Source: a virus
DNA length: 64,000 nucleotides
Virus record (IMG/VR): IMGVR_UViG_3300045988_176782
Span: 103,279 to 167,278 of that record
Reading direction: 5' to 3' (one strand)
This document shows, one piece after another, positions 7,015 to 60,512 of this stretch. Position 1 is the stretch's first letter; each line of letters starts with the position of its first letter. The notes beneath the pieces were generated by a model. The model saw only the letters and a list, made by a program, of their open reading frames with translations. It had not been told where the DNA came from and ran no database searches. The position numbers were made by a program, and so were the translations under genes.

Positions 7015-8136
7015 ATGGCAGAAAAAATATTGCAAACAAGAATTTAGTTAAAATATGATACTGAAACCAACTGGAATAAAGCTACAAATTTTATTCCTAA
7101 AGCTGGCGAAATTATTTTATATTCTGATGGCGGCGGTACTGGTATTCCTAAAATGAAAGTTGGGGATGGAAGTACAAAAGTTGGAAATTTAAAATTTCTT
7201 AAAGGAGATGGAGAATATCTAACCTCTGTCCCTGCTGGGACTTGGACTTGGACTAATGGTACATCTGCAGGGCCTACTGCAAAATTAACTATTGACTCTA
7301 ATGCAACAACTATCGGCGCAATTCCAGCTGCTTCTTAGAGCCAAAGTGGTATAATTACAACAACTTCTCAAGTCATTTCTGGTAATAAAGCTATGTTAGG
7401 TAATTTTTCTGTTGGTAGCAGAACTGATGCAAATTTATATACTTTAAATATTAGTCGTAAAAGTGCTTCTGATGCATCTTCTATGCTGTTTTAGGGCTAT
7501 ATTAATGAAACCGCAAACAATTTTCAAATGTGCATTTATCGTTATGGAATAGATAATACCGAAGCTTGGCGTTTAATTCTAAATTTTTTAAATGGAACAA
7601 TTACAAGTGATTCTACTACTCCAATTACTCTTGGTTCTGCGGACATTCCTTGGACTGCTGTTTATGCTAAGAAATTTGTTGGTGGTGAAGCCACAACTTC
7701 CGTAGCAGGTTTGATGAGTGCAGAAGATAAAACTGCCCTTGATAGTTTAAGCGCTGTTTTTGGTGGCAGTTCTTCTAGTTCAGCTGGCACAAAAGGTCTT
7801 GTTCCTGCTCCTGCAAGTGGGCAACAAAATTATGTTTTACGTGGCAATGGCAGTTGGTCTCAATCTGTTGTTTCTACTACTGCGACACTAACTGCCAATG
7901 GCTGGTCTTCTTCTACACCACACACTCAAATCATTAGTGTTAGCGGTATTACTACGAATTCTAAGGTAGTAATTGATGTTAATTTAAGCGGACAAAGTTC
8001 TGACAATATTTCTAGTATTCTTGAAAATTGGAGTAATGTTAATGATATTCAAACTAATAGTGGCGCATTAACAGCTTATTGCTATGGTGATGTTCCTACA
8101 GTTAATTTGCCAATTAATATTATTGATATTAAGTGA
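7015..8136 (+). CDS. tail fibre paralogue, three in-frame TAG (7045, 7336, 7492)
   Basis: ATG 7015; ORFs 7153-7338 and 7528-8136 are in the same frame. N-terminus MAEKILQTRI*LKYDTETNWNKATNFIPKAGEI is paralogous to genes 1728, 4667 and 11208. Confidence 0.7.
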
Positions 8137-11133: not shown

Positions 11134-11207
11134 GCATCTTTATTCTGAAAAGATGAATAAAGAAATTACCAATCGTCTGAAAAGACGACGATTAGGAGGT
11201 AATAATT

Positions 11208-29441: not shown

Positions 29442-30575
29442 ATGAAGCGTTTTCAGGCAGTAATAGATTGCGGTTTTGGTGACGCAGGAAAAGGCTTAGT
29501 TTCTCGTTGGCTTGCAAAGCAAGCATTTGAGCGTAAAGAAAAAACTTTAACTGTATTTTTTAGTGGCGGTTGCCAACGCGCCCATACCACTATTGAAGGC
29601 GTTTTTCATACTTTACCTGCTGGGTTATTTTTTGACAGTGATATTCTATATAGCGAAATGTTTGTCATTGACCCTATCGCTATTTATTTAGAATATGAAA
29701 GTTGGAAGCAAAGTTTCGGGCCATTTATTGAACCAAAACTTTATGTAAGCCCACATTGTCGTGTGGTTACTCCTTTTGATGTCTGGAATAATCGTCTAAA
29801 AGAAACTCGTCGTGGCGCGCAAAAACATGGCAGTTGCGGTATGGGCATTTTTGAAACCGTATTTAGAGATAAGAGTTTATTTGAATTAAAAGCCAGAGAC
29901 CTTTCCAACCCTTGGAAACTTTGGGAACAACTAAAGAAAATTGAAGAACTTTATAGCAATTCTTGCAGTGATATGGTCTATAATGCCCACAACTTTATGA
30001 AGGCCGCGGAATGGTTTACTAAAAATGTAGAGCAATTTGAAACATATGAAGTATTAAAAAAATATGATACCATTATTTTTGAAGGAAGCCAAGGTTTGTT
30101 GCTTTCTCAAACTAATGTGGATTTCTTTCCATACTTAACTCCTGCCTCTACCGGTGTTGATAATATTGAACATTGGTTCAATTTAGGCGCGGCGGAAGAA
30201 AAAGAAATCTACTATGTTTCTCGCTCTTATATGACACGACACGGTGCTGGGCCTTTTCCAACAGAATGTAAGAAGAAAGATATTAATCCCACAATTGTTG
30301 ATTCTACTAATATTCCTAATAAATGGCAAAATAATTTGCGTTTTGGATACTATGATGTAAAACTTATTGGTGATGCTATTGTTAAGGATACTTGTAGAAT
30401 TACGAACAATAAGGTAAAATTTAATATGGTATTTACGCAACTTAACTATACTAATGGCAAAGTAAGATGCGGCAAGAATGACGATTTGGATATTAATAAT
30501 GATTTATTTTTCTTTCTCAATTTTGACCATCTATATGGTTCTTGGGATAAAGAAAATGTAGAAAGGATTATGTAA
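29442..30575 (+). CDS. adenylosuccinate-synthetase-family enzyme, short phage type (PurZ-like candidate)
   Basis: GFGDAGKGLV (cf. PurA GDEGKGK), GSCGMGIFET..RDK (cf. GIGPAY.DK), EGSQGLLLS (cf. EGAQG.LLD), YMTRHGAGPFPTE (cf. TRVG.GPFPTE). 377 aa, shorter than cellular PurA. Confidence 0.7.
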   Translation: MKRFQAVIDCGFGDAGKGLVSRWLAKQAFERKEKTLTVFFSGGCQRAHTTIEGVFHTLPAGLFFDSDILYSEMFVIDPIAIYLEYESWKQSFGPFIEPKLYVSPHCRVVTPFDVWNNRLKETRRGAQKHGSCGMGIFETVFRDKSLFELKARDLSNPWKLWEQLKKIEELYSNSCSDMVYNAHNFMKAAEWFTKNVEQFETYEVLKKYDTIIFEGSQGLLLSQTNVDFFPYLTPASTGVDNIEHWFNLGAAEEKEIYYVSRSYMTRHGAGPFPTECKKKDINPTIVDSTNIPNKWQNNLRFGYYDVKLIGDAIVKDTCRITNNKVKFNMVFTQLNYTNGKVRCGKNDDLDINNDLFFFLNFDHLYGSWDKENVERIM

Positions 30576-30925: not shown

Positions 30926-31113
30926 CAATTAGAAGTCGCGAAGAAATGCTTGGTGAAGTTGATATGCTTAGAGGAAATATTAATCGTATTTGTGTTAGTG
31001 ATAATGTAGAAGAAATTTCCCAAATGTATCATTATGCTTTAATGCGTCTTGAAGAAATTATGAAATATAATGTACGGCGAGTTGTAGAAAGGAAGAAGAA
31101 TATTGAAGACTAA
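30922..31113 (+). CDS. hypothetical protein
   Basis: ATGA overlap with the upstream ORF. Confidence 0.45.
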   Translation: MTIRSREEMLGEVDMLRGNINRICVSDNVEEISQMYHYALMRLEEIMKYNVRRVVERKKNIED

Positions 31114-31546
31114 GAAAATTTATCTTGCCACTCCTGTTGGTGACCCTACAGAAATAAATATTCGCAGGAATGCAGAACAAGTTAAAAAAATTCTTGAATC
31201 TAAAGGGTTTGAGGTATATGCCCCCTGGCAGATGCATATACCGCGGGCGTGGGATTATCCAAATCAGGAATGGGGTTTAATGGTATTTACGGCTGATTTA
31301 CAGCATTTGCAAGAATGCGATATTGTAGTTGTATTGTCCTATGGTCGTATTGGCACAGCAGGGACGGCTTGGGAACAAGGCTTTGCTTATGCAAAGGGCA
31401 AAAAGATTCTTGTTGTAGAGATAACTAATCATATTCAAAGTCTTATGGTTATTAATGGCGCTAATGCTGTGATTAAATTCAAAGACCTTAATTCTTATGA
31501 TTTTGAAAAATTCCCCTACTGCCGCACTTTAACGGAGCAAAAATAA
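31103..31546 (+). CDS. nucleoside 2-deoxyribosyltransferase-family protein
   Basis: KIYLATPVG...CDIVVVLS...GTAWEQGFAYAKGKKILV is typical of the NDT fold. Apparent TTG start. Confidence 0.65.
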   Translation: MKTKKIYLATPVGDPTEINIRRNAEQVKKILESKGFEVYAPWQMHIPRAWDYPNQEWGLMVFTADLQHLQECDIVVVLSYGRIGTAGTAWEQGFAYAKGKKILVVEITNHIQSLMVINGANAVIKFKDLNSYDFEKFPYCRTLTEQK

Positions 31547-32230: not shown

Positions 32231-32257
32231 AACTTATAAATGAAAGGAAGTAAGAGA

Positions 32258-32689
32258 ATGAATAAACGCGATACGCATATGTTTGAGTTGGCAAAATCGG
32301 AGAGCTTGTTGTCGGATTATAAGGGTTATAGTAATGTAAAAATTGGTTGTGTTGTAAGTTATAATGGCTCCATTATCGCACGAGGCCACAACACCGATAA
32401 GACCTCAACAATTCAATCTCGTTACAACTGTTTAAGATACGCTGAAAGTCCTACCCGATATTTTGCCGCAAAGGGACACGCGGAAATTCTTGCTCTTACT
32501 AAAATTAAGTATTTAGATATTGATTTTTCTAAAGTAAAGGTATTTGTATACCGAGAAACTAAAAATGGAAAGCCAGCTATGGCGCGACCTTGTCCTTCGT
32601 GTATGGGTTTTATTAAAGAATTGGGCATTAAAAAGATTTACTACACTACTGATTGTGGCTTTGCCTATGAAGAGCTTAAATATGATTGA
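32258..32689 (+). CDS. dCMP/cytidine deaminase-family zinc enzyme
   Basis: HAEILAL and PCPSCMGFI zinc-binding motifs. ATG 32240 is an alternative start. Confidence 0.8.
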   Translation: MNKRDTHMFELAKSESLLSDYKGYSNVKIGCVVSYNGSIIARGHNTDKTSTIQSRYNCLRYAESPTRYFAAKGHAEILALTKIKYLDIDFSKVKVFVYRETKNGKPAMARPCPSCMGFIKELGIKKIYYTTDCGFAYEELKYD

Positions 32690-36465: not shown

Positions 36466-37119
36466 ATGTCTAAACAGCAAATCCCAATCAATGACCTTTT
36501 ACAATATTTGGATGAACAAGAAGAAAATAATACTATTTCTTGTGGCTGGACAATTATTGATTATATTTATGGCCATTATAATTTATTAAGTAAAAGAAAT
36601 ATACACACTCCAACGGCCTGGATTTTTTCTAACTGGTGTTTTGGAAACCATGGAACAATTTCAGAATACACTATCTTTATGCCCGGTATGTTAGTAAGAA
36701 AGCCAGGTTTATTTGGCGTTATACACGAAGGGAAAAATCTTCATAAACGAGAACAAACTTCCAATCTTTGGGTCTATTATACAGATACAAAATTTGGAAC
36801 AATTCTTGATGTTCCTTTTTACGCGCCGGAATGGGAACAATGGGGAACAATGAGCCAGATTTATGATTATTCTATTTATAAGCCTCAAAAGAATTTTTAT
36901 ATGTTAGGTAAGCGCAAACTCTCCATTGGAGACCATGGACTGGATGTTTTAATTTTGCAAATTGCACTTTTAAATTTTGGAGAATAGGTAAAGGTAAATG
37001 ATGATTATGATTTTGCCACTAAAACCGCTATTGAAAATATTTAGAAGTGTTTTTCTTTACCTGTTAATGGTATTGTGGATATTGATGATAATTTATTATC
37101 TTACTTACATAAGGAGTAA
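36466..37119 (+). CDS. cell-wall-associated protein with C-terminal PG_binding_1 domain; two in-frame TAG (36985, 37042)
   Basis: GGAGGG RBS. C-terminus GDHGLDVLILQIALLNFGE*VKVNDDYDFATKTAIENI*KCFSLPVNGIVD matches the peptidoglycan-binding repeat (FQ column = TAG). Confidence 0.65.
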
Positions 37120-37121
37120 AT

Positions 37122-37754
37122 ATGAATATAACAGTTAAGTTATATAATGATAAAAATATTAAATTCTATGGCTCTAATCAAATTACAATAGATTTAGAGG
37201 AATATTTGGTTGGATGTGTCGCGGCAGAAATAGGAAATGCACCACTTGAAGCTTGTAAGTCTTAGGCTGTGGCAAGCAGAACTTTTGCTCTAAATGCAAT
37301 TAAAAGTAAAGGTTATATCACAGATAAAAGTTCTTCTGACCAAGCTTTCAGAAGTGAGCGTTTAACGGGTTATCCTAATGTAATTTAGGCCGTTAAAGAT
37401 ACCGAAGGAGAAGTTTTATATTACAATGATAAACTCGCTAAAGCCTATTACTCTGCTTCTAATGGCGGCTATATGATTAGTGCAAAAACACGATGGGGTG
37501 GCGACCTGCCTTATTCTGTAAGTGGCGTTGATAAATACGATGATGGTAAAGGCAATGGCCACGGAGTTTAGTTGAGTTAGATTGGCGCGAAAAATCGTGC
37601 AAAAGCCGGTTTTGAATATAAGTAGATTTTAAGTTTTTATTATCCTGGGACAAATATTCATAAAATTGAAGAACAATCATATGAAATTAAAATCCCAATA
37701 ACTTCTGAATTATATAAAAATCTCTCAACTGCTGAGGTTGAAATGAGGAGGTGA
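37122..37754 (+). CDS. SpoIID/LytB-family lytic enzyme; five in-frame TAG
   Basis: LEEYLVGCVAAEIGNAPLEACKS*AVASRTFAL (cf. EEYL.GVV..EM....EALKAQAVAARTYA), YSASNGG, GHGV*LS*IGA (cf. GHGVGMSQ.GA), YK*ILSFYYPG. Confidence 0.8.
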
Positions 37755-38979: not shown

Positions 38980-39279
38980 ATGAAGTATTATTCTGAACAA
39001 CTATCTAAGTTCTATGACACTGCCGAAGCCTGTGAGGCCGCAGAAGTAGAAGCTAAGTCTGCTCAAGAAGCCAAGAAGGCGGCGGAAAATGATGCTAAGG
39101 CCCAATTACAGATTCAACAAGATACTGTAAATGCAATTCGTGAGCAATATAATGCTCTTGGCAAGCACTATAATGAAGAATACACTAAGCTAAGTAAGAT
39201 GCTAAGTGCCTATTCTCGTAAGTATGGCTATGTGCCTAAGGGTTTTAGTACCTTAGATATGTTGTTTGATTTGCTGTAA
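38980..39279 (+). CDS. hypothetical coiled-coil protein
   Basis: Intact ORF, AAGGA RBS. Confidence 0.5.
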   Translation: MKYYSEQLSKFYDTAEACEAAEVEAKSAQEAKKAAENDAKAQLQIQQDTVNAIREQYNALGKHYNEEYTKLSKMLSAYSRKYGYVPKGFSTLDMLFDLL

Positions 39280-39301
39280 GAAAATTTTATAGAATTAAAT
39301 T

Positions 39302-39330
39302 TTGACAAAAATAAAAATTTAATCTATAAT
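39302..39330 (+). promoter_or_regulatory. promoter TTGACA-N17-TATAAT driving the suppressor-tRNA transcript
   Basis: -35 at 39302-07, -10 at 39325-30. Confidence 0.7.
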
Positions 39331-39463
39331 ATATACAGAAAGTGAGAGAGAAATCTTTCACCAGACTGGCGATAGGAGTGGTGCTTATGAAACACGCTTT
39401 TACTCTGACTGGAGATAAAACTCCACCTCGCTATAAAGGGGAGAAGTAATTCTCCCCATACGA

Positions 39464-39553
39464 TGGCCCTTAGTTGAATGGTGACAACAGCTGACTCTAA
39501 ATCAGTAAGTGGGGTTGACCCCGCAGGTCTTGGTTCGAATCCAAGAGGGCTAA
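39464..39553 (+). tRNA. suppressor tRNA, anticodon CUA (reads UAG), class II (long variable arm), no encoded CCA
   Basis: Acceptor TGGCCCT/AGGGCTA (U1-A72, G2-U71). D stem GTTG/CAAC. Anticodon stem GCTGA/TCAGT with loop CT-CTA-AA (CTA 39497-99). 22-nt variable region with GGGG-TTGA-CCCC hairpin. T arm CTTGG-TTCGAAT-CCAAG. Discriminator A. Confidence 0.8.
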
Positions 39554-39607
39554 GGTATCAAATGGTCTGCCTTCTCGTGGCGATACTGACTGAAATAACG
39601 AAAGGCC
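39554..39607 (+). ncRNA. HDV-like (theta-type) self-cleaving ribozyme candidate abutting the tRNA 3' end
   Basis: P1 GGTATC/GATACT with G1-U. P2 GGTCT/AGGCC. P3 GCC/GGC with L3 TTCTCGT. J4/2 CGAA. The string ATGGTC..GCCT.CTCG.TGGC is close to the genomic HDV ribozyme. Confidence 0.65.
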
Positions 39608-39700
39608 TTTACAATGAAAGGGAGCATTAGAGTAATTAACTAATGAGTAATGTGCCCCATACACAAGCTTTCATATTGTTTATAATATGGGGTGAATTTT

Positions 39701-40537
39701 ATGGGATATATTTATAAAATTACTAATGATATTAATGGAAAAGTTTATATTGGTAAAACATTAAATACGGTTGAAGCAAGATGGAAAGAACATTGTTATG
39801 ATAAAGACCGGAGAAAAGTAGAAAATCGTCCGCTTTATTAGGCAATGAATAAATATGGTCTTCAGCATTTTTCTATTGAGACTGTAGAAGAATGTAAAAC
39901 TAATTTAGAAGAACGAGAAGTTTATTGGATTAAATATTATAATTCTTATATTGGTTGGCCAAATAGCAATGGTTATAACGCTACTTTAGGTGGAGATGGA
40001 AAACAATATATTAATTATGATATGATTCGTGAATTAGCAAATACAGAAAAAACTTAGGTTGAAATTGCTGCTATTGTTGGATGTAATGTTGATACTGTGG
40101 CAAAAGTTTATTTATAGGATAATCAAGAAAATTATAATTATAATAAACGGATTAGTATCGCTGTTTATCAGAAAGATAAAGATGGTAATATTATTGCAGA
40201 GTATCCAACAATAAAATCCGCCGCAGAAGCAACCTTAACTAGTCCAAGTCATATTGGACAATGTTGTGCTGGGAAACGAAAAACTTGTGGTGGTTATTAT
40301 TGGGAATATGTTAATACTAAAGAAGGTTAGACACGGCGAGCAATTAGTAATTAGCCTAAAGTAAATATCCCGCGTGAAATATTAAAATCATTAATAAGAG
40401 AACATCCTATGGAAGAAATTGGCCGTATATATGAATGTTCTGCAGCATCAATTAGACGATGTTGCGAACGGCTAAATCTTCCACGAACTAAAAAAGAAAT
40501 CAATTCTTATTCTGATGAAGAATGGTTTAAAATATAA
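39701..40537 (+). CDS. GIY-YIG homing endonuclease with C-terminal DNA-binding modules; five in-frame TAG
   Basis: MGYIYKITNDINGKVYIGKT...RPLY*AMNKYG...REVYWIKYYNS...GYNATLGG, then NUMOD/IENR-like CGGYYWEY and an HTH-like tail. ORF 39845-40057 is in the same frame. Confidence 0.8.
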
Positions 40538-40610
40538 AGTTGTTATGGTGTGAAAATCCAACCCATCAAGCCTCTTAATAATGCTCAAACCGATGGGAGT
40601 TTCATAGCTT

Positions 40611-40681
40611 AAGACGCATACAGCCAATTATTAATGTAAGTTTTTATTAGAAATAAAATAATACAAATAATTCGCGTCTTG
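40611..40681 (+). repeat. AAGAC..GTCTT element copy (E1)
   Basis: AAGACGC-ATACAGCCAAT...GCGTCTT-G followed by T-rich sequence. Confidence 0.6.
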
Positions 40682-40708
40682 TATTCATTTTCTTCTTTTC
40701 TTTTTTAA

Positions 40709-40773
40709 AAGACATATACAGCAAAAGATTTTACATCGCATAATAGTTGGCTGATTACCTACAATGTGTCTTG
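40709..40773 (+). repeat. AAGAC..GTCTT element copy (E2)
   Basis: AAGACAT-ATACAGCAAAA...GTGTCTT-G. Confidence 0.6.
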
Positions 40774-40781
40774 AAAAAAAT

Positions 40782-40810
40782 TTGACAAAAATAAAAAATT
40801 AAATTATAAT
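40782..40810 (+). promoter_or_regulatory. promoter TTGACA-N17-TATAAT driving a non-coding transcript
   Basis: -35 at 40782-87, -10 at 40805-10. Confidence 0.7.
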
Positions 40811-40816
40811 AAATCC

Positions 40817-41425
40817 ATAATAAAGAAAAGATATTTTTCTTTACTATATGATACCTCGGTGAAGAGCATTTGGCCAATGTGCCGAGAACAAACGGAAGAT
40901 AGCCAGCTCCATATGATGGATACATTATATGCCTGAGCCGCGAAAACAGTGATGTTTAGCGATAGGAGAAAAGACTCCAATATCAAGTTTGTGTGCTTTG
41001 TATTTCGCAATTTAACGCATAATTTCTCTGGAGAACACAATAGAAAGCAGGATGAATAGTCCTGCCGAATCCAAGGCGCCGTTAGCTGGTGACTGTCGGG
41101 GAAAAGATACGGCCTTGGAAACAACCACAAGTTCTTTTGTGATGAAACACAGAAATGTGATATAACAGAGGTTTGTAGTCTGAGTAGCTCAACACAGCGA
41201 ACAAAAAGATGATACAAATTGGCTATTGTTTCTAATTTGCTGAATGGCTTGGGTGAAAAGTGCGAGTAGTCAATCTCGTTAGAGCGTTGTTTGGATAAAG
41301 AAGTCAAGGAGTAGCTAACTTGGCTCAGCCTTTATCTTCTCTATGGCGGAATAAGATTGAAGAAATCACAAAGTAGGGCGAAGGTCCATCAGTTAGTAGA
41401 GAAAAATATCTTTTCTTTTTTTTAT
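40817..41425 (+). ncRNA. large (about 600 nt) structured RNA closed by a 25-bp terminal helix (ROOL/GOLLD-class candidate)
   Basis: 40822-40846 AAAGAAAAGATATTTTTCTTTACTA pairs with 41394-41418 TAGTAGAGAAAAATATCTTTTCTTT (one mismatch), followed by a T-run. No sense ORF. Many internal helices, e.g. CCAAGGC...GCCTTGG and GCAGGA..TCCTGC. Confidence 0.65.
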
Positions 41426-41442
41426 TTATGAAAGGAGATACT

Positions 41443-41607
41443 ATGTATAGTAGTAGAAGATTCTTTAGTGAAGATGCTTGGGTTGATTTTAATGAATGGC
41501 TTAGGGATTTTCACGGTGAAATTGTAAATGTAAGTCATACAACGGTTCCGATTGGAAGATTTGATTTCTGGATGGATATTGTGGTGGTTTATAAAAATTT
41601 GACATAA
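41443..41607 (+). CDS. small hypothetical protein (54 aa)
   Basis: AAAGGAG RBS; ends inside the next promoter. Confidence 0.4.
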   Translation: MYSSRRFFSEDAWVDFNEWLRDFHGEIVNVSHTTVPIGRFDFWMDIVVVYKNLT

Positions 41608-41626
41608 AAAATAATTACGATATAAT
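41599..41626 (+). promoter_or_regulatory. promoter TTGACA-N16-TATAAT
   Basis: -35 at 41599-604, -10 at 41621-26. Confidence 0.6.
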
Positions 41627-41655
41627 ATAGAAAATTAAGAAAGGAAGTTAAATCT

Positions 41656-41781
41656 ATGGAATGGATTTTAGGAATAGGTTGTTTGGCTTTTTTGTTTGTG
41701 TTGTATAAGCCGAATATTGAAAGAATGATTTACAGCATTAAAGATTGGATTGAGAAAGGAAATAAAGAAAATGACATTTGA
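41656..41781 (+). CDS. small membrane protein (41 aa)
   Basis: AAGGAAG RBS; MEWILGIGCLAFLFVLY. Confidence 0.4.
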   Translation: MEWILGIGCLAFLFVLYKPNIERMIYSIKDWIEKGNKENDI

Positions 41782-42220
41782 AACACTCCAGCAAGAAATG
41801 TATTCTGCTATGAAGTCCGGAGATAAATTTCGTAAAGAAGTTATTTCTGGTCTTATTGCTGACATTAAGCGCGTAGCTATTGATAAAAATTGTCGTGATA
41901 ATATTACTGAAGAAGTCGTAAATACAGTTCTTCTAAAAAGTCGTAAGATGGCACAAGAAATGATTGATACTTGTCCTGAATCTCGTCTTGACCTTCTTGA
42001 ACAATATAAACAAAACGCCGTAATTATGGACGAGTATGTTCCTAAGCTTATTACAGACACAAACGAAATTGCAGCGATTATTAGTCAACTTTTAGTTAAG
42101 TTTAATGTTGAACCTGTCAAAGCTAATATGGGTAAGATTATGAAACTTTGTAAGGAAAACCTTAATGGCAAAGTTGATATGAAAATTGTAAGTAATATTG
42201 TAAAATCTATTTTAGTCTAA
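41771..42220 (+). CDS. GatB/YqeY-domain protein
   Basis: MTFETLQQEMYSAMKSGDKFRKEVISGLIADIKR...ITEEVVNTVLLKS.K...E is the typical YqeY layout. Confidence 0.65.
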   Translation: MTFETLQQEMYSAMKSGDKFRKEVISGLIADIKRVAIDKNCRDNITEEVVNTVLLKSRKMAQEMIDTCPESRLDLLEQYKQNAVIMDEYVPKLITDTNEIAAIISQLLVKFNVEPVKANMGKIMKLCKENLNGKVDMKIVSNIVKSILV

Positions 42221-42236: not shown

Positions 42237-43565
42237 ATGTCTGAACATGTAGGTTATGTTGTAAAAATTAATTCATTGCGGCCTCATTCTAATGCTGACC
42301 GTCTTCAAATTGCTACTATTTTTGACTCTAATGTTATTGTTAGTCTTGATACCCATCTTGATGACATTGGCGTGTATTTTCCTTCTGATATTCAGCTCTC
42401 TAAGGAATTTTGTAAAGTAAATGACCTTGTTCGTCGTAAAGATGAAAATGGCAATCCTGCAGGTGGCTATCTTGACCCAAATAAGCGTAATATTCGTCCG
42501 TTGAAGTTGCGCGGTGAAAAAAGTGATGGTCTATATCTGCCCATTACTTGTATGATGGAGTTCTGTCCTATTTCTGACCTTAAGGTTGGCGACACTATTG
42601 GTGTTGTAAATGGGCACGAAATTTGTAAGAAGTATATTCCCCATCGCACGAAGGCATACCATTATACTGAAAAAGTAAGGAAGCAAAAGGTTAATTTTGC
42701 TCCTACCTTTTTTGAGCATTGCGATACCGCTCAACTTGCATACAACCTTGAAGCTTTCCGTGCAGGAGATGTTGTAGAGCTAACTCTTAAAATGCACGGG
42801 ACCAGTGCGAGAATGGGCTATCTGCCTTTGCTGCAACCTCGGACTTTGCTAGATAAAATTCTTCGTCGCACTCGCAAAACTTATGGAAATGTTATTGGCA
42901 CTCGCCGCGTTGTATTGGATGAAACTCATACTGGTGGTTTTTATGAGGACAATGCTTTCCGACGCCATATTGCTAAAAAGGTTGAAGGAAAACTCCATCG
43001 TGGAGAAACTATTTATGGAGAAATTGTAGGCTTTCAAGGTCCCAATGGCGCGCCTATTATGTCTTCTGTGAAAAACTCTAAAATTTCCGATAAAGCATTC
43101 ACGAAGCAATATGGTGAAGAAACTGTATTCTCTTATGATTGTAATGCTGCGAATGGTTATGAAGATGAACATCCTTGTTGTGAATTATATGTTTATCGTA
43201 TGACTATGGTAAATGATGACGGCGATGTGGTAGATTACTCTCCTGCGCAAATCCGTTATCGTTGTGAGCAAATGGGAGTTAAAGTTGTTCCTCAATTTGA
43301 AGTATTCGTAATTCCTCAAGATGAACCCCATCCTGGTGAATATGTAGTACGTAAAGTTGAAGAATACTATGACGGTCCTGACCCTATTGGTAAAACCCAT
43401 GTACGCGAAGGCGTTGTTGCTCGTATTTTGAATCGGAATAATTTTGCGGTTTATAAAATGAAGAATTGGAACTTCAAATGCCTTGAGGGTATTGTTAAGG
43501 ATGAAGCGGCAGAACCAGATATGGAAGAAGCGCAAGAAGAACTAGTGGAGGAGCAAACTGAATGA
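42237..43565 (+). CDS. RNA ligase with N-terminal OB/tRNA-binding-like domain (Rnl5-like architecture)
   Basis: N-terminus VVKINSLRPHSNADRLQIATI (tRNA_bind-like). Nucleotidyl-transferase motif I LKMHGTS (KxHG). Confidence 0.65.
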   Translation: MSEHVGYVVKINSLRPHSNADRLQIATIFDSNVIVSLDTHLDDIGVYFPSDIQLSKEFCKVNDLVRRKDENGNPAGGYLDPNKRNIRPLKLRGEKSDGLYLPITCMMEFCPISDLKVGDTIGVVNGHEICKKYIPHRTKAYHYTEKVRKQKVNFAPTFFEHCDTAQLAYNLEAFRAGDVVELTLKMHGTSARMGYLPLLQPRTLLDKILRRTRKTYGNVIGTRRVVLDETHTGGFYEDNAFRRHIAKKVEGKLHRGETIYGEIVGFQGPNGAPIMSSVKNSKISDKAFTKQYGEETVFSYDCNAANGYEDEHPCCELYVYRMTMVNDDGDVVDYSPAQIRYRCEQMGVKVVPQFEVFVIPQDEPHPGEYVVRKVEEYYDGPDPIGKTHVREGVVARILNRNNFAVYKMKNWNFKCLEGIVKDEAAEPDMEEAQEELVEEQTE

Positions 43566-47164: not shown

Positions 47165-47861
47165 AAATCAAAGCTGTTTTGAGTTCCTTCCTACTATTCC
47201 TTCTAAATCCATTAATCTTATTCTAATTGACCCGCCATATGAAATTTCTCGCGCCACTAATTTTCAAAGTGGAGAAGAAACTGGAACTGATACTGACCGT
47301 TTTCGTATCTCTATGGATTTTGGCGATTGGGATAAGAATTTTTTTGGCTTAGAAAAGGTTTTTAAAGAAGCACAGCGGATTTTGGTTGATGGCGGCACAA
47401 TGATTTGTTTTTATGATTTATGGAAAATTGAAACAATTAAACAATATTATGAAAATAATAAGTTTAAACAAATTCGCTTTCTTGAATGGATTAAAACCAA
47501 TCCTGTGCCAATTAATAGCAAAATCAACTATTTAACTAACACTCGTGAAGTTGCGGTTTTGGGAATAAAAAAATCTAAACCAACTTTTAATAGTTCATAT
47601 GATAAGGGAATTTATGAATATCCTATTTGTCATGAAAAAGGCCGCTTCCATCCCACACAAAAGCCATTAGAGTTAATGGAAGCTTTGATTCTAAAACATT
47701 CTAATGAAGGCGACACTGTTTTAGATTGTTTTGCAGGAAGTGGCACAACTGGTGTTGCTGCGATTAAAAACAATCGGAAATTTATTGGTTGTGAAATTTC
47801 TCCAGAATATTATTCTCAATCTTTGGAACGACTAAAAAATTTGACAAAAATGAAAAATTAA
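47133..47861 (+). CDS. DNA methyltransferase, beta-class (N6A or N4C)
   Basis: LILIDPPYE (motif IV) near the N-terminus, and VLDCFAGSGTTGVAA (motif I) near the C-terminus. Confidence 0.8.
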   Translation: MTQLNLEETYKNQSCFEFLPTIPSKSINLILIDPPYEISRATNFQSGEETGTDTDRFRISMDFGDWDKNFFGLEKVFKEAQRILVDGGTMICFYDLWKIETIKQYYENNKFKQIRFLEWIKTNPVPINSKINYLTNTREVAVLGIKKSKPTFNSSYDKGIYEYPICHEKGRFHPTQKPLELMEALILKHSNEGDTVLDCFAGSGTTGVAAIKNNRKFIGCEISPEYYSQSLERLKNLTKMKN

Positions 47862-47869
47862 ATTATAAT
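47841..47869 (+). promoter_or_regulatory. promoter TTGACA-N17-TATAAT for the tRNA island
   Basis: -35 at 47841-46 (inside the end of the MTase CDS), -10 at 47864-69. Confidence 0.65.
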
Positions 47870-51386: not shown

Positions 51387-52691
51387 ATGAAAAAGTCTTA
51401 TTTAGATTTAATTGCAACTTTATATTCAGAACCTGATTTACGAAGTTGTAGAAACATTACCTTATAGGTTTGCGATGATTGCTGTTTAAAATGTTCATAT
51501 TGCTATCAAATTCATAAAAGCCACAATTATATGACAAAAGAGACTGCAAAAGCCATTATTGATTTACTATTTAGAATGTATGATGAAGATAAGCCAGACG
51601 CATTTATCAATCATACAACTCATGGTATAATTCTTGATTTTATCGGTGGCGAGCCTCTAATGAACGTTGAAATTATGGAATTTGCTACTGAATACTTTAT
51701 TGACCAATGTTTGCAAAAAAATCACGAGTGGCTTTATAATTTTCGCACAAGTTTTGCAACAAATGGTATTCTTTATTTTGAACCAAAAGTATAGGCATAT
51801 TTACAAAAATTTCACAATTTTATTTCTATGACCGTTAGTATTGATGGCCCAAAAGAAATTCATGATATTTGCCGTCTTGACCGTGATGGTAATGGTAGTT
51901 TTGAACGAGCAAGTACCGCGGCGCACCATTATTGGGAATATTATGGAAAAGATGTCGGGGGACGAGATGAAACTAAAGTTACCATTGCTCCAGACAATTT
52001 ATCTCAATTAAATAAAATTGTAGATTATTTCTTAAATGAAGGCGTTACAGTGATTAATGCCAATCCAGTTTATGAAGTAGAATGGACAGTAGAATAGGCA
52101 AAAATATATTATAATGAATTAAAAAAATTAGCAAATAAATTGTTATTAAATTTAGAAATTAAATGTAGTATTTTTGATAGCCATTAGAACGTCCCCTTGC
52201 CTATTAGTGATAATACGAACTGGTGCGGCGGTGATGGACATATGTTAGCTTTTGACCCGCACGGAAATGCTTATCCTTGTTTGAGATATATGGAAAGCTC
52301 TTTAGGTGGAGAAGTTGAGCCTTTAATTATTGGTGATACTAATGGTATTTATAATACGCCAGAAAGTCAAGAAATTAGGTGTAAACTTTGTACATTAACT
52401 CGTAGTAATTAGTCTACGGAAGAATGTACGCATTGTTCAATCGCCGCGGGCTGCTCTTGGTGCAGTGCTTGGAATTATCAGCAATTTAAAAAGATCGGTA
52501 AGCGTAGCACGAATATTTGTTGGATGCACCGAGCCGCAGCATTGGCCAATGTCTATTATTGGAATCTTAAATACCGTTTAGAAGAAAATGAAAAAAGATT
52601 CCCAATTTATCTTGAACAAAAATATGCTTTGTAGATAATACCCTCTGAAGAATATGATTTGTTGCTTTCACTTTCTCAATGGGGAGAGTGA
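51387..52691 (+). CDS. radical SAM/SPASM peptide maturase (CXXX-repeat-target type candidate); six in-frame TAG
   Basis: ORFs 51531-51794, 51828-52097 and 52197-52412 are all in the frame of ATG 51387. ITL*VCDDCCLKCSYCYQ (CxxxCxxC). C-terminal CGGDG...PCLRY...CTHCSIAAGCSWCSAWN is SPASM-like. Confidence 0.75.
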
Positions 52692-54026: not shown

Positions 54027-54087
54027 ATGTCTATAAAAGATAAGCAATAGCTCTATTGCTTCCAAAATGAAAAGGAGAAAAGAAAAC

Positions 54088-55575
54088 ATGAATAATCTAC
54101 TAAATTCCCTAAAGCAAGAAACCAACTATACCTACACCACCAATGGCGCAGTAGCGCACAAATCTACCCTAAACAAAGTCCTTGATCTATTTGCCCTTGG
54201 CGGCGCTTATCGTGTAAAGAGTGACAATGACGTTATTCTTCTCTTTAAAGAAGCATATGACGAGAATCCTGAACTCGCGCTAAAGTGCTTGTTCTTTATT
54301 CGTGATATTCGCGGCAATGGTTATGGTGAACGTCGCTTTTTCCGTGTATGCCTTCATTGGCTTGCTACACAACATCCCGAAGTTGTGAAGCGAAATATTA
54401 ACTATATTCCATTTGTTGGCCGTTATGACGACCTCTATGCTATAATGGATACTCCTTGTATGCTGGATGCTTTTACTTTCTTTGATCGCCAACTGCGACT
54501 TGATATGGAATGCCAAACTCCCAGTTTATGTGCAAAGTGGATTTGGTCAATGAATTGTTCTTCTGCCGAACATAAGAAATATGGTAAGGCACTTGCAGAT
54601 TATATGCGTTTAACTCCTAAGCAATATCGTAAGATGCTTACTGGTTTGCGCGCGAAGATTAAGATTGTTGAAACTCTAATGTCTCAGAATCGTTGGGATG
54701 AAATTCAATTTGATAAATTACCTTCTAAGGCCGGCTTTAAGTATCGTAATGCTTTTGCAAAGAACGATTACACTAAAGAACGCTATGAAGCCTTTATGAA
54801 GTCTAAGACCACTAAGGTAAATGCAAAAACCTTATTCCCCTATGAAGTCGTAAAGCAAGCTATTAACGCTGATTGGCAAGATGAACTAACCTGCAATACT
54901 CTTGAGAAGTATTGGGAGAATCTTGCTGACTATTTCAATAATGCTACTTTTAATGCTCTGGCCATTGTTGATACTTCTGGTTCTATGCGTAGTGGTGCTG
55001 CTTCCGCCGCGCCTATTGATGTGGCAATTTCTCTTGGTATGTATTGTGCGGAAAAAGCTAATGGTCCTTTTAAGAATCATTATATCAGTTTTTCCTCTAA
55101 GCCTCAATTGATTGAAATTAAGGGTGTCAATTTTGTTGACAAGGTTCAGCGTATTTACCAAACTAATCTTTGTGAAAATACTAACATTGAAGCTACTTTT
55201 GATCTTCTTTTAAATAATATTGTGAAGTATAATTTAAATGAAGAAGATATTCCAGAGTATCTTGTAATTATTTCCGATATGCAGTGGGACGAAGGGGTTT
55301 GTGAAATTCGCGGGCGATACTATATGCCTGCGGCGAATCCTCAAACTTTAATTGACCAAATTAAAGAAAAGTGGAAAAGTGTCGGAATAAGGATGCCTAA
55401 ATTAATTTTCTGGAATGTCAACGCAAAACATCCTGTCATCCCTGCTCTTGATGGAAATTACAGTTATATCAGCGGCTTTAGCCCCGCGATTTTTGAACAA
55501 ATTATGACCGGTAAAACCGGCGTAGAACTAATGCTTGAAGCACTAAGTTCTGAACGTTATAAAGACATTCATTAA
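54088..55575 (+). CDS. DUF2828-type protein: helical-repeat N-domain plus C-terminal vWA (Ro60/TROVE-like architecture)
   Basis: YTTNGAVAHKSTLNKVLDLFALGGAYR N-terminal signature. MIDAS IVDTSGSM. GGAGAA RBS before ATG 54088 (ATG 54067 is also in frame). Confidence 0.6.
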   Translation: MNNLLNSLKQETNYTYTTNGAVAHKSTLNKVLDLFALGGAYRVKSDNDVILLFKEAYDENPELALKCLFFIRDIRGNGYGERRFFRVCLHWLATQHPEVVKRNINYIPFVGRYDDLYAIMDTPCMLDAFTFFDRQLRLDMECQTPSLCAKWIWSMNCSSAEHKKYGKALADYMRLTPKQYRKMLTGLRAKIKIVETLMSQNRWDEIQFDKLPSKAGFKYRNAFAKNDYTKERYEAFMKSKTTKVNAKTLFPYEVVKQAINADWQDELTCNTLEKYWENLADYFNNATFNALAIVDTSGSMRSGAASAAPIDVAISLGMYCAEKANGPFKNHYISFSSKPQLIEIKGVNFVDKVQRIYQTNLCENTNIEATFDLLLNNIVKYNLNEEDIPEYLVIISDMQWDEGVCEIRGRYYMPAANPQTLIDQIKEKWKSVGIRMPKLIFWNVNAKHPVIPALDGNYSYISGFSPAIFEQIMTGKTGVELMLEALSSERYKDIH

Positions 55576-55601: not shown

Positions 55602-55616
55602 AGGTGGTGAAACTTT

Positions 55617-57911
55617 ATGAGTGGAGGATTTTCTGGCGTTGGCGGCTATGCTGTTATTCTAACTCCAGAAGGCGCATCGCTATATGGCGGCGGAAATGCA
55701 AGTTTTGAAGCACTTGTCACTGCTGCAACAGGCCAAATAGATATTGAGGCAACAACATAGGAAATTCTTGCTATTTTATATTAGCAATATGAAGAACAAA
55801 CAATAATAGAAAGGAATATACGGGCAGCTTATGGCAATGAAACTATTGAAAATATTATAAAATCCTTACGCGGAGAAACTTCTAAAGTAATGAGCGGCAC
55901 ACCAGAAATGATACAAAATCTTAAGCAAAATTTGGCCGACTGGCAGAACAAAGAAAAGAGTCGTAAAGAAACAATCGCCCAAATTCGTGGAGATTCTGAA
56001 CATTATTATCAAGTTTATAATACTTTAGTAGACGGATTAGTTGCCTTAGCTAATCAATTAACTAATATGGATGAAAAAGCATTACGAACTGGTCCTGGTA
56101 TCATTGAAACATTAATTCATAAATGGGAAAATTCTTCCAGTCAATTAGAGCAAGAAGCCGCGAAAATGGCGCAATCTTTTTCCAAATTAGATTTAGATAA
56201 TGAATCATTTATTAAAGATATGAATAGTACCTTTGACAAAATTAGAGAGACAATTAACAAAGAAGACATGGCCTATTCTTATGACCCTACTTCTAATACC
56301 ACTGAACTTAAAAATCCAGAATTAACCGCGGCTATTTAGGAATTACTTGCCTTTCAAGAAAAAATCCGCAGTGATATAGATAAAAAAAGTAAACGCAGTA
56401 AAAAGAAAAAACAAAGACTTCTTGCTATGTGGAATAATATTAAATTTGCCAATTGGAATGCAAGAACCAGTAAACTTGGTCAGGCATTAAATCAAAAAGG
56501 TAAAAACGACCCAATGATAATTTTAAATAGTTTAAGGCAAAAAGTCTATGATGTGGCTAAATAGCAATTAGAGGAAAACACTGGACGAAAAGCCACAGAT
56601 AAAGAGCAACAAAAACTTCGTTCTTCAATTACAGAAATTCAAACTAAAGCTGTCAATGAGCTAAGTGAACAAACTAAAGACTATGCAGTACGGCAACTTA
56701 TTTCACTTGTATTTGGCGACCAAGCACAAATTGGTCCATTAAAAGGACTACTTGCCGAGCAATTTAAAACTGCAATGGCTAAATCCTATATACAAGATGT
56801 AAATAATTCAGTTCAGCAAGCCTATCAATAGGCCATTGGTGCAGTATGGGAAGAAATTATAACAAAGCTTTGGCTAACAGGGAAAGATACAAGAAATGTA
56901 AAAATATTAGTACCAGGCCCTGAAGACCTTAAAGACATAGTATAGTCTGATGATGATTTAAGAATAGGAACAGATATTAATGCTTTTGATAATGAAAATA
57001 AACGGTATGGCACGCAACATCGTTTAAAGCGAACGAATGAAGAAATTTTTAAAGGCTATCAAAAAAATAAGAATAAAAAAGATGCCCTTAGCGTTTCATA
57101 GCGCGAACTCAAAACTTGGTTAAAGTCAATTAGCGGGAAAAAAGATTTACCAAACTTACAAGCAAGTTTAGACAACTATTTTAATGAAAATATTATTGAC
57201 CTCCCTTCTATTCAAAAACAATTTGATAAAGTAGATAGTGTTCAAGCGGCGACAGTGGGAAAGAATCCATATTACATTGCTTTCTCAGAAAAGCAACGTA
57301 CTGCAGGTGGTATGACTGGTTCTATTGGTTTAATGGGCGATGATATTAGCAGATTTAATAATATGAAAGCTTCTGGAACTAATTTATATAGTTCTTTAGA
57401 TTTAATTAGTTAGAATGGTTCAGACAAATCTATTCCTACTGCACAAATAATGTTCGCAATGCTGAATCAATCTACTGCTTCTATATATCATGGTGATGCT
57501 GGTGTTCAGGAGTAGATAAGAAATTATATTAAAATGCAACTTGCGGCAAAAGTATTAGATTTGGCATTTAATAGAGTAAATTTTTTCTTCAATCAGCAAC
57601 AAAAAGGTATTGATATGAATCAAAAAAATACTCTATTTGTTATGAATGTTAATAATCTTTATGTCTCTTCCACGGCCATATTACGCGGCCTTATTGAAAA
57701 ATTTCAAAATTATCAAGACGTAATTGCTGACATCGTTTATGTTAATGTAGAATTTGATACTGCCCACCAAGCTTATCCCCTATGGATGACCGCGATTGCA
57801 AGTCAAGGTGGCGGCGATGCAAATCAAGCAGCCCGTTGGGGATTTGTTGCTAATCAAGTTGCTGCTAATACTAAATTGAATGTTTCTCTCAGCATTGCAA
57901 ATTTAATGTAG
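55617..57911 (+). CDS. large (764 aa) virion-type protein, nine in-frame TAG
   Basis: ATG 55617; ORFs 55890-56339 and 57534-57911 are in the same frame, and the frame stays open throughout if TAG is read as sense. Confidence 0.6.
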
Positions 57912-57928
57912 TTATTTGATTTTTAAAT

Positions 57929-57988: not shown

Positions 57989-59236
57989 ATGAAGGCATAT
58001 TTAGCAGCGCCCATTTTTACTGAACGAGACCGAAATTTTAATTCTTATTTAGAAGCAGAAATTTTGAAAGTATGCCCTGATTTAGATTTGTATTTGGCGC
58101 AAAATAACCAAACAATTAACGATAAATCACAATGTGCAACTTCTGCTGATATTTATGTAGGAGATATTTCTCGGCTAAAACAAGCAGATTTAGTAATTAG
58201 TATTATGTCTGGAGACCTTCCTCCTATAGGAAGCTCCTATGAAACGGCGTATTTTTGTGCATTATGCGAACAAGACGACCGAAAAACTATTATTGCACTT
58301 TATGACGATAGCCGAGAAGGCAGCAAAACTTATTCTTCTGGTAAATTGGACGCAATGTTAAGTGGGATTGGCGAGAATCAATGGCCATATGTTAATTTGT
58401 TAGCAGTTGGTTACGTTAAAAAGAATGGCGTAATTTGTTCTACCAGTGAAGAACTTATTCAGCAAGTAAAGCGCCAATACGACCTTTTTACTGATTCTCG
58501 CCAAAGCGGTATTTATAAAATTACAAATTTAAAGAACAATATGATTTATATTGGTCAAACAAAAAACCTCCACGATAGGAAACTTCAGCATTGGCGACCT
58601 AGCGAACGTGAGAAGTATCGTGATGCTCCTTTATATCAAGATATGAATCAAATAGGTTTAGATTATTTTAAATTTGAGATTATTGAAAAATGTGATTTAG
58701 AGCAATTATCTGAACGTGAGCGATATTGGATTGACTACTATGATAGTTATAATTTAGGTTATAATCGTAGCAATGGTGGCTGTACTCTTGAAAATATGGA
58801 TAACTTTACAAGTAGTCAAACCACAGAAATTTATTGTTATAACTTAGATGGCAGTTTTGATAAAAAATATTGCAGTATCTCAAGTGCCGCTCGTGCTATA
58901 GGTTTTCCTCAAAGTCGTGGCGATATAAGCAGATGTGCTTTATTAAATGACAACCATCATCAATCCGGGGGAAAAATGTGGAGTTATCACTATACTGAGA
59001 ATTTTCCTCCATATCAACCTCCATTAAGGGGAAAACAGATTCATTGCTATGATTTAAAAACCAGATTATATATAAAAAGCTATGATAATGCCGTTCGTGC
59101 TGGTGAGGAAATTTTTGGGCATCGCGCTCCACATATTAATGATGCCGCTACAGGAAAGCGTTGTAGCTGTGGTGGGTATCTTTGGGCATATAAATATTTT
59201 GAACGTCTGCCAGAGAAATATCATGAAAATTTATGA
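57989..59236 (+). CDS. fusion protein: nucleoside 2-deoxyribosyltransferase-like N-domain plus GIY-YIG nuclease plus DNA-binding repeats
   Basis: N-terminus MKAYLAAPIFTERDRNFN...ADLVISIM...SSYETAYF (NDT fold). Middle SGIYKITNLKNNMIYIGQTKNL...RERYWIDYYDS..GYNRSNGG (GIY-YIG). C-terminal GGKMWSY / CGGYLWAY repeats. Confidence 0.65.
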   Translation: MKAYLAAPIFTERDRNFNSYLEAEILKVCPDLDLYLAQNNQTINDKSQCATSADIYVGDISRLKQADLVISIMSGDLPPIGSSYETAYFCALCEQDDRKTIIALYDDSREGSKTYSSGKLDAMLSGIGENQWPYVNLLAVGYVKKNGVICSTSEELIQQVKRQYDLFTDSRQSGIYKITNLKNNMIYIGQTKNLHDRKLQHWRPSEREKYRDAPLYQDMNQIGLDYFKFEIIEKCDLEQLSERERYWIDYYDSYNLGYNRSNGGCTLENMDNFTSSQTTEIYCYNLDGSFDKKYCSISSAARAIGFPQSRGDISRCALLNDNHHQSGGKMWSYHYTENFPPYQPPLRGKQIHCYDLKTRLYIKSYDNAVRAGEEIFGHRAPHINDAATGKRCSCGGYLWAYKYFERLPEKYHENL

Positions 59237-59261
59237 ATAAAGAATATGTTAAGGAGTTTTG

Positions 59262-60512
59262 ATGATGATTTATAATATTTCTGACCGCCCACCTTTTGGA
59301 AAGAATCTTCTATTCTCTCTCCAACTTGTGCTTGCCTGTTTCGTCGCAACTTGTTTAATTGCTCAAATTTGCGGTGTTTCCGCAGCTGCTGCACTTGTCG
59401 GCGCAGGTATTGGCACGATTTTTTATCTGATTATTACTAACTTCAAAAGCCCAATGTATATTAGTAGTTCTGGCGCTTTTGTTGCACCTGTTCTCGCCGC
59501 TCTAACTCTTGGAGGTTATACTGGTGCGGTGATTGGTGGAATTATTTCTTGTATTGTATATTGTATTTTTGGATACATTTTTTCCAAAGTTGATGTTGAT
59601 AATATTTATAAGATTTTCCCAAAAACTTTAATTGGCGCTATTACCGCAGTTATTGGTATTAATCTTATGCCGTTCTGCTTAACTTATGTACAAATTGCAG
59701 GTCAGACTTCAATTTGGGGCGTTGTAATTGCTTTTATTACTATGACCGCAATTGCATTAATCTCCCAATATGCTAAGGGACTTGGTAAAATTTTGCCTTT
59801 CTTACTCGGCACACTAATTGGTTATGGAGTCGCAATTATTTTAACTCTAACTGGTATTTATCCCATTGTTGATTTTAGCGTATTCCAGAATCTTAAGTTA
59901 TTCGCTGTTCCTGATTTTGGATTCTTCCATTTCTCAACAATTTCTTGGAGTGCAATTCTTTCTATTGTTGTTCTGTATATTGTTTATACCGTTTCCGCTT
60001 CTATGGAATTGCTTTCTGACCACGCCGCACTTGGTGCGATTATTGGAACAGATCTATATAGAAACCCTGGCCTAAGTAAGATTTATTTTGGTGAAGGCGC
60101 AGCTAACTTGGTTAATGGCTTATTTAGCGGATTAGGTTCATGCTCATACGGAGAAGGAATTAGCACCGTCGGGTTTTCTAAGGTAGCATCAACTTGGACC
60201 ACACTTTGGGCTGCAATTATTATGATTGTTCTTGGTTTCTTTGGTCCAGTGCAAGCGTTAATTACTTCTATTCCTTCTTGTGTATTCTGTGGCGCAGCAT
60301 TGATTTTGTATGGTTTTATCACTTGTAGTGGTATTAAGATGTTACAACAAGTAGATTTAAATAATAATAAGAACATTACCGTCGTTTCTGTTGTTCTTTC
60401 TCTAGGTATTAGTGGTATTGCCATTGGCAGCACAACCTTTGCCTTATCTGGTGTAGCACTTGCTTTAATTGCTGGTGTTGTGCTTAACTTGATTTTAAAA
60501 AATAAAAATTAA
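59262..60512 (+). CDS. nucleobase:cation symporter-2 (uracil/xanthine permease-like)
   Basis: SDRPPFGKNLLFSLQLVLACFVAT resembles UraA ERPPL...LSLQHLFAMFGAT. At least 10 TM segments. Confidence 0.7.
   Translation: MMIYNISDRPPFGKNLLFSLQLVLACFVATCLIAQICGVSAAAALVGAGIGTIFYLIITNFKSPMYISSSGAFVAPVLAALTLGGYTGAVIGGIISCIVYCIFGYIFSKVDVDNIYKIFPKTLIGAITAVIGINLMPFCLTYVQIAGQTSIWGVVIAFITMTAIALISQYAKGLGKILPFLLGTLIGYGVAIILTLTGIYPIVDFSVFQNLKLFAVPDFGFFHFSTISWSAILSIVVLYIVYTVSASMELLSDHAALGAIIGTDLYRNPGLSKIYFGEGAANLVNGLFSGLGSCSYGEGISTVGFSKVASTWTTLWAAIIMIVLGFFGPVQALITSIPSCVFCGAALILYGFITCSGIKMLQQVDLNNNKNITVVSVVLSLGISGIAIGSTTFALSGVALALIAGVVLNLILKNKN

Follow-up and report, generated by a model that had tools for sequence, protein, structure and literature searches.

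A probable ROOL RNA gene with its own consensus promoter in a large phage with sense TAG codons in some genes

The ROOL family (Rfam RF03087; Weinberg et al., 2017, PMC5737381) consists of large structured RNAs whose formation of hollow, RNA-only cages has been documented (PMC12286853, PMC12990946). The cages resolved by cryo-electron microscopy (cryo-EM) are the env-120 octamer (9MDS), the E. faecalis octamer (9J3T), and the L. salivarius hexamer (9J6Y), all listed in PMC12990946. For env-120, Kretsch et al. (2025; PMC12286853) reported the residues that bridge neighboring subunits together with the covarying pairs of the family, and a disordered linker inside the ROOL cage was described in the same work (PMC12286853). 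Published ideas on what the cage does include the encapsulation of tRNA, ribosomes, or other macromolecules. GOLLD (RF01998) is likewise a large ornate RNA of phages and prophages that often lies near tRNA genes, and it also forms an RNA-only cage with a disordered internal linker (PMC12286853), but it differs in its unrelated sequence and fold, its length of more than 800 nt, and its assembly as a 14-mer. Here we compare these systems with an interval on the + strand of the IMG/VR virus record IMGVR_UViG_3300045988_176782, within a stretch of 64,000 nt (positions 103,279 to 167,278 of that record) that is referred to as the window and to which all coordinates refer. The interval is very probably a gene for a ROOL RNA, and the phage that carries it is ~167 kb long.

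When all Rfam families were searched against the window, ROOL was the sole large-RNA match. The model is covered from end to end at a score three times its gathering score of 99.1 bits, and the result was repeated in a second scan.

40831..41406, + strand: Rfam ROOL (RF03087) match covering 1-574 of 574 model positions, 295.8 bits, E = 6.3e-67

GOLLD gave no match at gathering level in the window, nor at E <= 1 in 39200-41900. An earlier note on this DNA had described a promoter-driven non-coding RNA of about 600 nt resembling ROOL or GOLLD, in a phage setting near tRNA genes, had proposed a check against the Rfam models of both families, and had allowed that the RNA might represent a new class. 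Of these suggestions, ROOL is upheld by the full-length match and so is the phage setting, as tail-fibre and other phage genes and 13 tRNA genes are present in the window; the GOLLD alternative falls away, and so does the new class, given an end-to-end match at threefold the threshold. A catalogued family gains another example, and no new class is added.

At ~600 nt, the window RNA is close to the mean length of the family (581 nt), and it resembles the other members in its nested helices, both pseudoknots, the conserved sequence blocks, the variable internal linker, and its residence in a phage with a tRNA array. The conserved family blocks that it matches are GUGAAGA, GGAUAC, AGUGAU, CAAUAGA, UAUAAC, and AGUAGC, and further CUGAAUG, GGUGAAA, UCAAUC, GCUCAG, GAAUA, and GUAGGGCGAAGGUCC. 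It differs in having its closing helix, P1, extended to 25-34 bp.

The locus opens with a perfect promoter and closes with a run of eight T, and from the positions of the two we infer a transcript of ~607 nt.

40782-40810, + strand: sigma-70-type promoter, with -35 TTGACA at 40782-40787, a 17-nt spacer, and -10 TATAAT at 40805-40810 (12/12 matches)
40817..41423, + strand: predicted ROOL transcript, ~607 nt, its start placed 7 nt past the -10 and its end in the T8 run
41416..41423, + strand: T8 run, presumed transcription stop, read off the letters directly after and overlapping the 3' arm of P1
22636, 24305, 26479, 39302, 40782, 41599, 47841, 51064, and 57929, all + strand: starts of perfect promoters from a consensus scan

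At the 3' end the letters are TTTTC followed by T8. Two sister phages, L037 and L038, are viral contigs of 165.6 and 168.2 kb from one metagenome and were found via the neighboring RNA ligase; they carry ROOLs at the same place (299 and 310 bits, respectively) behind an unchanged promoter, and they retain the T-run, which is one T shorter in L037. The scan for TTGACA-N16-18-TATAAT returned nine perfect promoters in the window, whereas shuffles gave an expectation of 0.05; every one of the nine is on the + strand. Most of them have an A-rich spacer (AAAAATAAAAAAT...) in common, and among the genes that the nine precede are ROOL, the suppressor tRNA, the tRNA array, and the YqeY-RNA ligase genes. 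The ROOL promoter and that of the tRNA array (47841-47869) differ by a single spacer base.

The predicted RNA is organized around P1, two pseudoknots, and an internal linker.

40819..40852, + strand: 5' arm of the closing helix P1 (34-nt arms, 88% complementary by a repeat finder)
41388..41421, + strand: 3' arm of P1, running into the T-run
41137..41141, + strand: 5' strand of pseudoknot P10, UUGUG (env-120 349-352)
41193..41197, + strand: 3' strand of P10, CACAG (env-120 406-409)
41240..41243, + strand: 5' strand of the second pseudoknot (linker flank with J17/18), CUGA of CUGAAUG (env-120 458-461)
41325..41328, + strand: 3' strand of the second pseudoknot, UCAG of GCUCAG (env-120 578-581)
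41198..41239, + strand: variable unstructured linker of 42 nt, aligned to an unpaired, unconserved, low-confidence part of the model

All that the earlier note had read from the letters stands. The promoter is perfect as claimed, and the T-run does follow the closing helix. The interior is richer in G+C than its surroundings (0.424, with 0.408 for the Rfam match and 0.358 for the window). The 25-bp helix between 40822-40846 and 41394-41418 is a reverse complement at 24 of 25 positions, its sole mismatch being a U-G wobble, and its arms extend further, to 34 nt, which takes P1 ~12 bp past the Rfam model. The three local helices quoted there (CCAAGGC 41071/GCCTTGG 41112, GCAGGA 41047/TCCTGC 41060, and CTCGG 40855/CCGAG 40882) are all present, and all are helices of the Rfam ROOL model. 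The interval has no credible sense-strand open reading frame (ORF), the longest inside it being 37 aa. Lastly, the note had named homologs without a conserved structure as a ground for doubt, and in the homologs compared the pairing is kept through compensatory changes, as set out below.

Independently of the model, the minimum free-energy fold of 40817-41425 is closed by P1 and recovers many of the model hairpins. Against dinucleotide shuffles, the sense strand folds at -181.1 kcal/mol (z = -6.15) and the antisense strand at -153.8 kcal/mol (z = -4.74). In alignments fitted to the model, which lean towards its structure, 123 of 149 scorable model pairs (83%) are standard pairs, and moving the 3' partner out of register by 1-3 positions lowers this share to 35-47%. 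In the same kind of alignment, used in place of a MAFFT alignment of divergent ROOLs that was misregistered in the 5' third, comparison with the divergent ROOL L011 (323 bits) gave 58 pairs changed on both sides yet still paired, 10 changed on one side, and 45 identical. Covariation with L011 is also seen in P1, at six pairs, and P10 covaries in three lineages, with UUGUG:CACAG in the window, UUGGCAA:UUGCCAA in L011, and CCUC:GAGG in env-120. The strands of the second pseudoknot (CUGA:UCAG) are identical in all six ROOLs checked, namely those of the window, L037, L038, L009, L011, and L031.

The sister phages give a closer view of how the RNA changes. The promoter, RNA, and T-run are together 96-98% identical to those of the sisters, and the flanking genes 91-95%; for the whole conserved block at 40545-41759, which spans an abiF RNA motif, ROOL, and a downstream ORF, the values are 96.6-96.8%, against 91-95% for the flanking segments. 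Within ROOL, 15 of 609 positions differ in L037 and 23 of 609 in L038. Most of these differences fall in loops, in a variable insert (41101-41111), or in the linker, and the linker (41198-41239) is a substitution hot spot. Where helices are touched, A41298G together with U41332C swaps an A-U for a G-C pair within a 7-bp register (GAUAAAG 41294-41300/CUUUAUC 41330-41336), and several other changes are G-U exchanges. These comparisons show purifying selection on ROOL, which is more strongly conserved than the neighboring genes.

The contacts that hold the env-120 cage together were located in the window RNA by local sequence context, because the env-120 sequence taken from the supplementary PDF has 650 nt, not 659, and its numbering drifts by +3 to +10.

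40872..40875, + strand: loop side of kissing contact B1, GGCC (env-120 A38-C41)
41246..41249, + strand: partner side of B1, GGCU just after CUGAAUG (env-120 G465-U468)
41087..41090, + strand: loop side of kissing contact B4, UGGU (env-120 G307-A310)
41124..41127, + strand: partner side of B4, ACCA (env-120 U332-C335)
41152..41155, + strand: GAAA (GNRA) tetraloop of hairpin 41148-41159, the A-minor contact B2 in env-120 (A366)
41312..41317, + strand: loop L18, UAGCUA, with a self-complementary GC at 41314-41315; B6 of env-120 (G565:C566'), which joins two half-shells

B1 and B4 are each paired at 4/4 homologous positions, for which the chance expectation is ~0.02 per contact. B1 covaries while keeping its pairing (GGCC:GGCU in the window, AGCC:GGCU in the sisters, ACCA:UGGU in L011, and AAUC:GAUU in env-120), and B4 is UGGUA:UACCA in L011 and GGUA:UACC in env-120. 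At the B2 position, L011 has a GUAA tetraloop. As mapped here, the nucleotides of the base-paired cage contacts B1, B4, and B6 and the GNRA tetraloop of B2 are kept in the predicted window ROOL.

Judged by its anatomy and, for assembly, by analogy with the cages seen by cryo-EM elsewhere in the family, the locus probably works as follows. The host sigma-70 RNA polymerase would start at ~40817 from the perfect consensus promoter, P1 (25-34 bp) would clamp both ends of the RNA together, and transcription would halt in the T8 run at 41416-41423 to yield an RNA of ~607 nt, with some read-through into a 54-aa ORF that follows. Copies of the RNA would then self-assemble, without protein, into a closed dihedral cage, either an octamer or a hexamer. 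Assembly would proceed through the kissing loops B1 (40872-40875 with 41246-41249 of a neighboring chain) and B4 (41087-41090 with 41124-41127), and through the GNRA A-minor contact B2 and the self-complementary GC of L18 (B6), and the 42-nt linker would face the cage interior.

Several points limit this picture. The B5 contact is an adenine stack, which lies beyond the reach of sequence alone. In the hairpin that corresponds to B3 (the apical P7 "daisy chain" contact) at 41047-41065, the 6-bp stem is perfect and the bulged base that env-120 uses is missing; P7 is not always conserved in ROOLs, according to the authors who described it (PMC12286853). The oligomer number of ROOLs varies, being 6 or 8. 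Compared with the Rfam model, the window RNA carries a 10-nt insert (41101-41110) and has no counterpart of the small hairpin (model positions 452-461), and it scores lowest among the 11 full-length ROOLs (295.8 bits, with 298-367 bits for the others), which makes it the most divergent of those compared. At the 3' end, a simple terminator scan did not flag the site, because the stem is long-range, and P1 could face competition from a weak local hairpin (AGAAAA/UUUUCU, 41400-41416).

Three other explanations of the interval itself were weighed against a functional ROOL gene. The low score and the missing peripheral hairpin would suit a decaying, non-functional remnant; a remnant would hardly be expected to keep a perfect promoter and the whole length of the model, to be better conserved than its flanking genes, to have its pairing upheld by compensatory and G-U changes, and to have its quaternary contacts intact, and we regard this as very unlikely. 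The long P1, the missing hairpin, and the possession of its own promoter are lineage-specific traits that could also mark a new class of large structured RNA, similar to ROOL and GOLLD only in size and setting. This is refuted by the full-length covariance-model match to RF03087 at three times the family threshold, and the blocks, helices, pseudoknots, and quaternary contacts are common to other ROOLs while GOLLD gives no match, so that we attach next to no credence to it. Equally far-fetched is a protein-coding interval, either through an antisense ORF of 167 aa (40804-41307, - strand) or through a recoded sense frame, for which some figures can nonetheless be cited. None of 2000 composition-matched shuffles contained an antisense stop-free run of 173 codons, TAA is absent from the 205 codons of sense frame 0, and TAG is sense elsewhere in this phage, which is why reassigned codes were tested as well. 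Still, the antisense ORF has no Pfam match, and although the sisters are 96-98% identical, it is broken in both (longest remaining runs 105 and 115 aa). On the + strand, stop-free runs reach at most 49 codons in the standard code, 71 if TAG is sense, and 82 if TGA is; frame 0 contains three TGA, a codon that closes 14 of the window's 54 long stop-free runs on the + strand. The sisters' indels, of 1 nt and 5 nt, are not multiples of three and would therefore break any reading frame, and substitutions track RNA pairing, not codon position. The gene caller used for the ENA record (ERZ27229731 k119_200862, 167,278 bp), which reads through TAG in the neighboring gene, places no gene in 40538-41442. 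A conserved coding frame, the other ground for doubt named in the earlier note, was thus found under none of the standard, TAG-sense, and TGA-sense codes, and the coding explanation was rejected as far as sequence can show.

A somewhat more serious alternative, although in our judgment still improbable, is that the RNA serves mainly as a 5' leader or cis element for the ORF directly downstream, perhaps together with the YqeY-RNA ligase genes, with the T-run as a leaky or regulated attenuator.

41443..41607, + strand: ORF of 54 aa, beginning 20 nt past the T-run, present as a gene in the ENA record and kept in the sisters

This ORF, for which no Pfam or PHROG match was found, has a strong Shine-Dalgarno sequence at 41431-41437, only 8 nt past the T-run, and no promoter of its own, so that some read-through is likely and it is probably expressed only through read-through from the ROOL promoter. 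The next perfect promoter begins at 41599, inside the end of the ORF; ROOL, T-run, and ORF are conserved as a single block in the sisters; and the terminator is not a canonical G+C-rich hairpin. All of this fits a leader. On the other hand, no comparable ORF follows the ROOL of L009, the other lineage examined, and in L183, L217, and L271 ROOL lies between tRNA genes, which makes the family independent of a downstream ORF. In L. salivarius, ROOL is an abundant, discrete RNA (PMC12286853), and read-through here would be compatible with a ROOL that also acts in trans.

The ROOL gene lies in a neighborhood rich in RNA-related genes, with three kinds of small-RNA genes (suppressor tRNA, abiF motif, and ROOL) within 2 kb.

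40562..40598, + strand: abiF RNA motif (RF03085), single copy 233 nt upstream of ROOL, 49.9 bits (gathering score 37)
39464-39553, + strand: tRNA with anticodon CUA (amber suppressor), 90 nt with a 19-nt variable-region insert, behind the perfect promoter at 39302-39330
39701-40537, + strand: GIY-YIG/NUMOD homing endonuclease gene, with five in-frame TAG and a TAA stop
37113-37754, 51387-52691, 55611-57926, 11181-13403, 6994-8136, and 1042-1707, + strand: frames in apparent gene gaps that are broken only by TAG (2-10 each)
41750-42220: YqeY, a neighboring gene
42237-43565: RNA ligase, a neighboring gene
47.9-53.5 kb: tRNA array of 12 genes, ~6.5 kb from ROOL

The abiF motif is a 37-nt hairpin with a near-perfect match to the consensus. 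It is also present in the sisters (L037 3358-3394 and L038 3363-3399), where it belongs to the conserved ROOL block; among the ROOLs compared, only the lineage of the window has an abiF motif directly upstream. In the described system, the abiF-motif RNA RCd22 neutralizes the AbiF toxin in trans (PMC12373285). The window differs from that system in two respects, as RCd22 has two copies of the motif and the window a single one, and as the abiF gene expected after the motif is replaced in the window by ROOL. For the 50 window ORFs of >= 120 aa, the listed families include no Abi_2/AbiF protein (the best 25 of 28 Pfam families and the best 25 of 71 PADLOC families, for a 64-kb window of a ~167-kb phage). 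Because RCd22 acts in trans and no partner gene is among these families, the phage motif may, by analogy, be a decoy antitoxin against an AbiF toxin of the host.

The suppressor tRNA lies 1.3 kb upstream of ROOL. Neither sister has the segment of ~1 kb (39466/39499 to 40544) that holds this tRNA(CUA) and the endonuclease gene, and for this reason the segment looks like a mobile cassette. The sisters in turn carry ~960 bp that are absent from the window (L037 4556-5515 and L038 4559-5515), between the ROOL block and YqeY, so that the abiF-ROOL block is bracketed by lineage-specific insertions. Since the Pfam matches of a SpoIID-like frame (37113-37754) and a radical-SAM frame (51387-52691) span TAG codons, TAG is, on the evidence of these predicted frames, read as sense in at least some genes of this phage. 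Other genes of the window follow the standard code, and some of them end in TAG. Just past the tRNA array is a gene for a 502-aa DUF2828/DUF7788 protein (54067-55575, + strand) that matches phrog_850, "RNA-binding protein" (E = 1e-124). Elsewhere, a PurZ-like adenylosuccinate synthetase (phrog_1211, 2e-51) belongs to a set of window genes at 29442-30575 (+ strand), 31103-31546, 32240-32689, 57989-59236, and 59259-60512, where it is accompanied by 2-3 nucleoside 2-deoxyribosyltransferase domains, a dCMP-type deaminase, and a xanthine/uracil permease. This set hints at modified DNA bases, e.g., 2-aminoadenine.

As for relatives beyond the sisters, a BLAST search against GenBank phages returned no match for the ROOL interval in distant mode or for the surrounding 22 kb in near mode, and therefore no annotated relative was usable. 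YqeY, used as a clue to the host, has no close relative in the genome collection, and a scan of genomes for the ROOL 3' motif gave mostly chance hits in G+C-rich genomes, none of them ROOL-like by nhmmer. Among the viral contigs that were fetched, 11 other ROOLs match the Rfam model; ten of these are full-length (298-367 bits), and the one in L012 is cut at the 5' end. ARAGORN found tRNA genes at every ROOL locus on which it was run, save one of six new ones. In L183 (8624-9618), L217 (5524-6321), and L271 (6147-6916), ROOL lies between tRNA genes on the same strand, and in L217 the flanking tRNA matches end at 5610 and begin at 6238, so that they overlap or abut the ROOL at 5607-6233 within ~5 nt. 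This layout suggests that ROOL is co-transcribed with the tRNAs and freed by tRNA-processing enzymes in these three loci, in contrast to the window, where ROOL is a separate transcription unit.

Suppressor tRNAs also occur ~1-3.5 kb from ROOL in L009 (7284-7358, - strand), L012 (1215-1289, + strand), L217 (4138-4213, + strand), and L183 (5558-5653, + strand), with the anticodon CUA in the first three and UCA in L183. Overall, suppressor tRNAs are present at 5 of ~13 ROOL loci and at 0 of 7 tRNA-bearing loci without ROOL. We treat this association as a lead only, because the sample is small and unmatched, the loci are partly related, and the comparison is confounded by the size of the tRNA arrays. 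No paper linking ROOL to recoding was found in the literature. Another structured RNA, RAGATH-33 (RF03102, ~139 bits), lies among the tRNA genes of L009 (6233-6345, - strand) and L012 (1488-1600, + strand), ~2 kb and ~1.2 kb downstream of ROOL, respectively.

We read the RNA-related neighborhood of the window ROOL (suppressor tRNA, abiF RNA, YqeY, RNA ligase, and the 12-gene tRNA array) as a group of translation-support or counter-defense genes. We tentatively propose that ROOL could be made in bulk early in infection together with the phage tRNA set, which has a nearly identical promoter, and that the translation apparatus could be the level at which the cage acts, by enclosing or sequestering some macromolecule, the possible cargo being a tRNA, a ribosomal particle, or a host factor that targets RNA. 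This proposal, drawn from the gene neighborhood, is held with low confidence. More speculative still, and in our view rather doubtful, is the idea that ROOL is a working part of an RNA-based module that helps recoded phages to seize translation or evade defense, and not a mere passenger of tRNA arrays. It is raised by the abiF block, the near-identical tRNA-array promoter, the amber-suppressor tRNA 1.3 kb away, and the suppressor tRNAs in at least three other lineages (L009/L012, L183, and L217). If it were true, tRNAs might be stored or protected in the cage, or their release timed by it; alternatively, the cage might sequester a host factor, one that either works against the code switch or cleaves tRNA.

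ROOL is among the few natural RNAs known to build a protein-free cage bigger than a ribosome, and the locus described here offers a cleanly bounded copy that has a promoter to itself, in a large phage with sense TAG codons. Its interest comes mainly from the unusual genomic company that ROOL keeps, which is suggestive and not proof. Should a proper survey bear out a link of ROOL with suppressor tRNAs or the abiF motif, this would provide the first concrete, genetically testable hypothesis for the function of ROOL.

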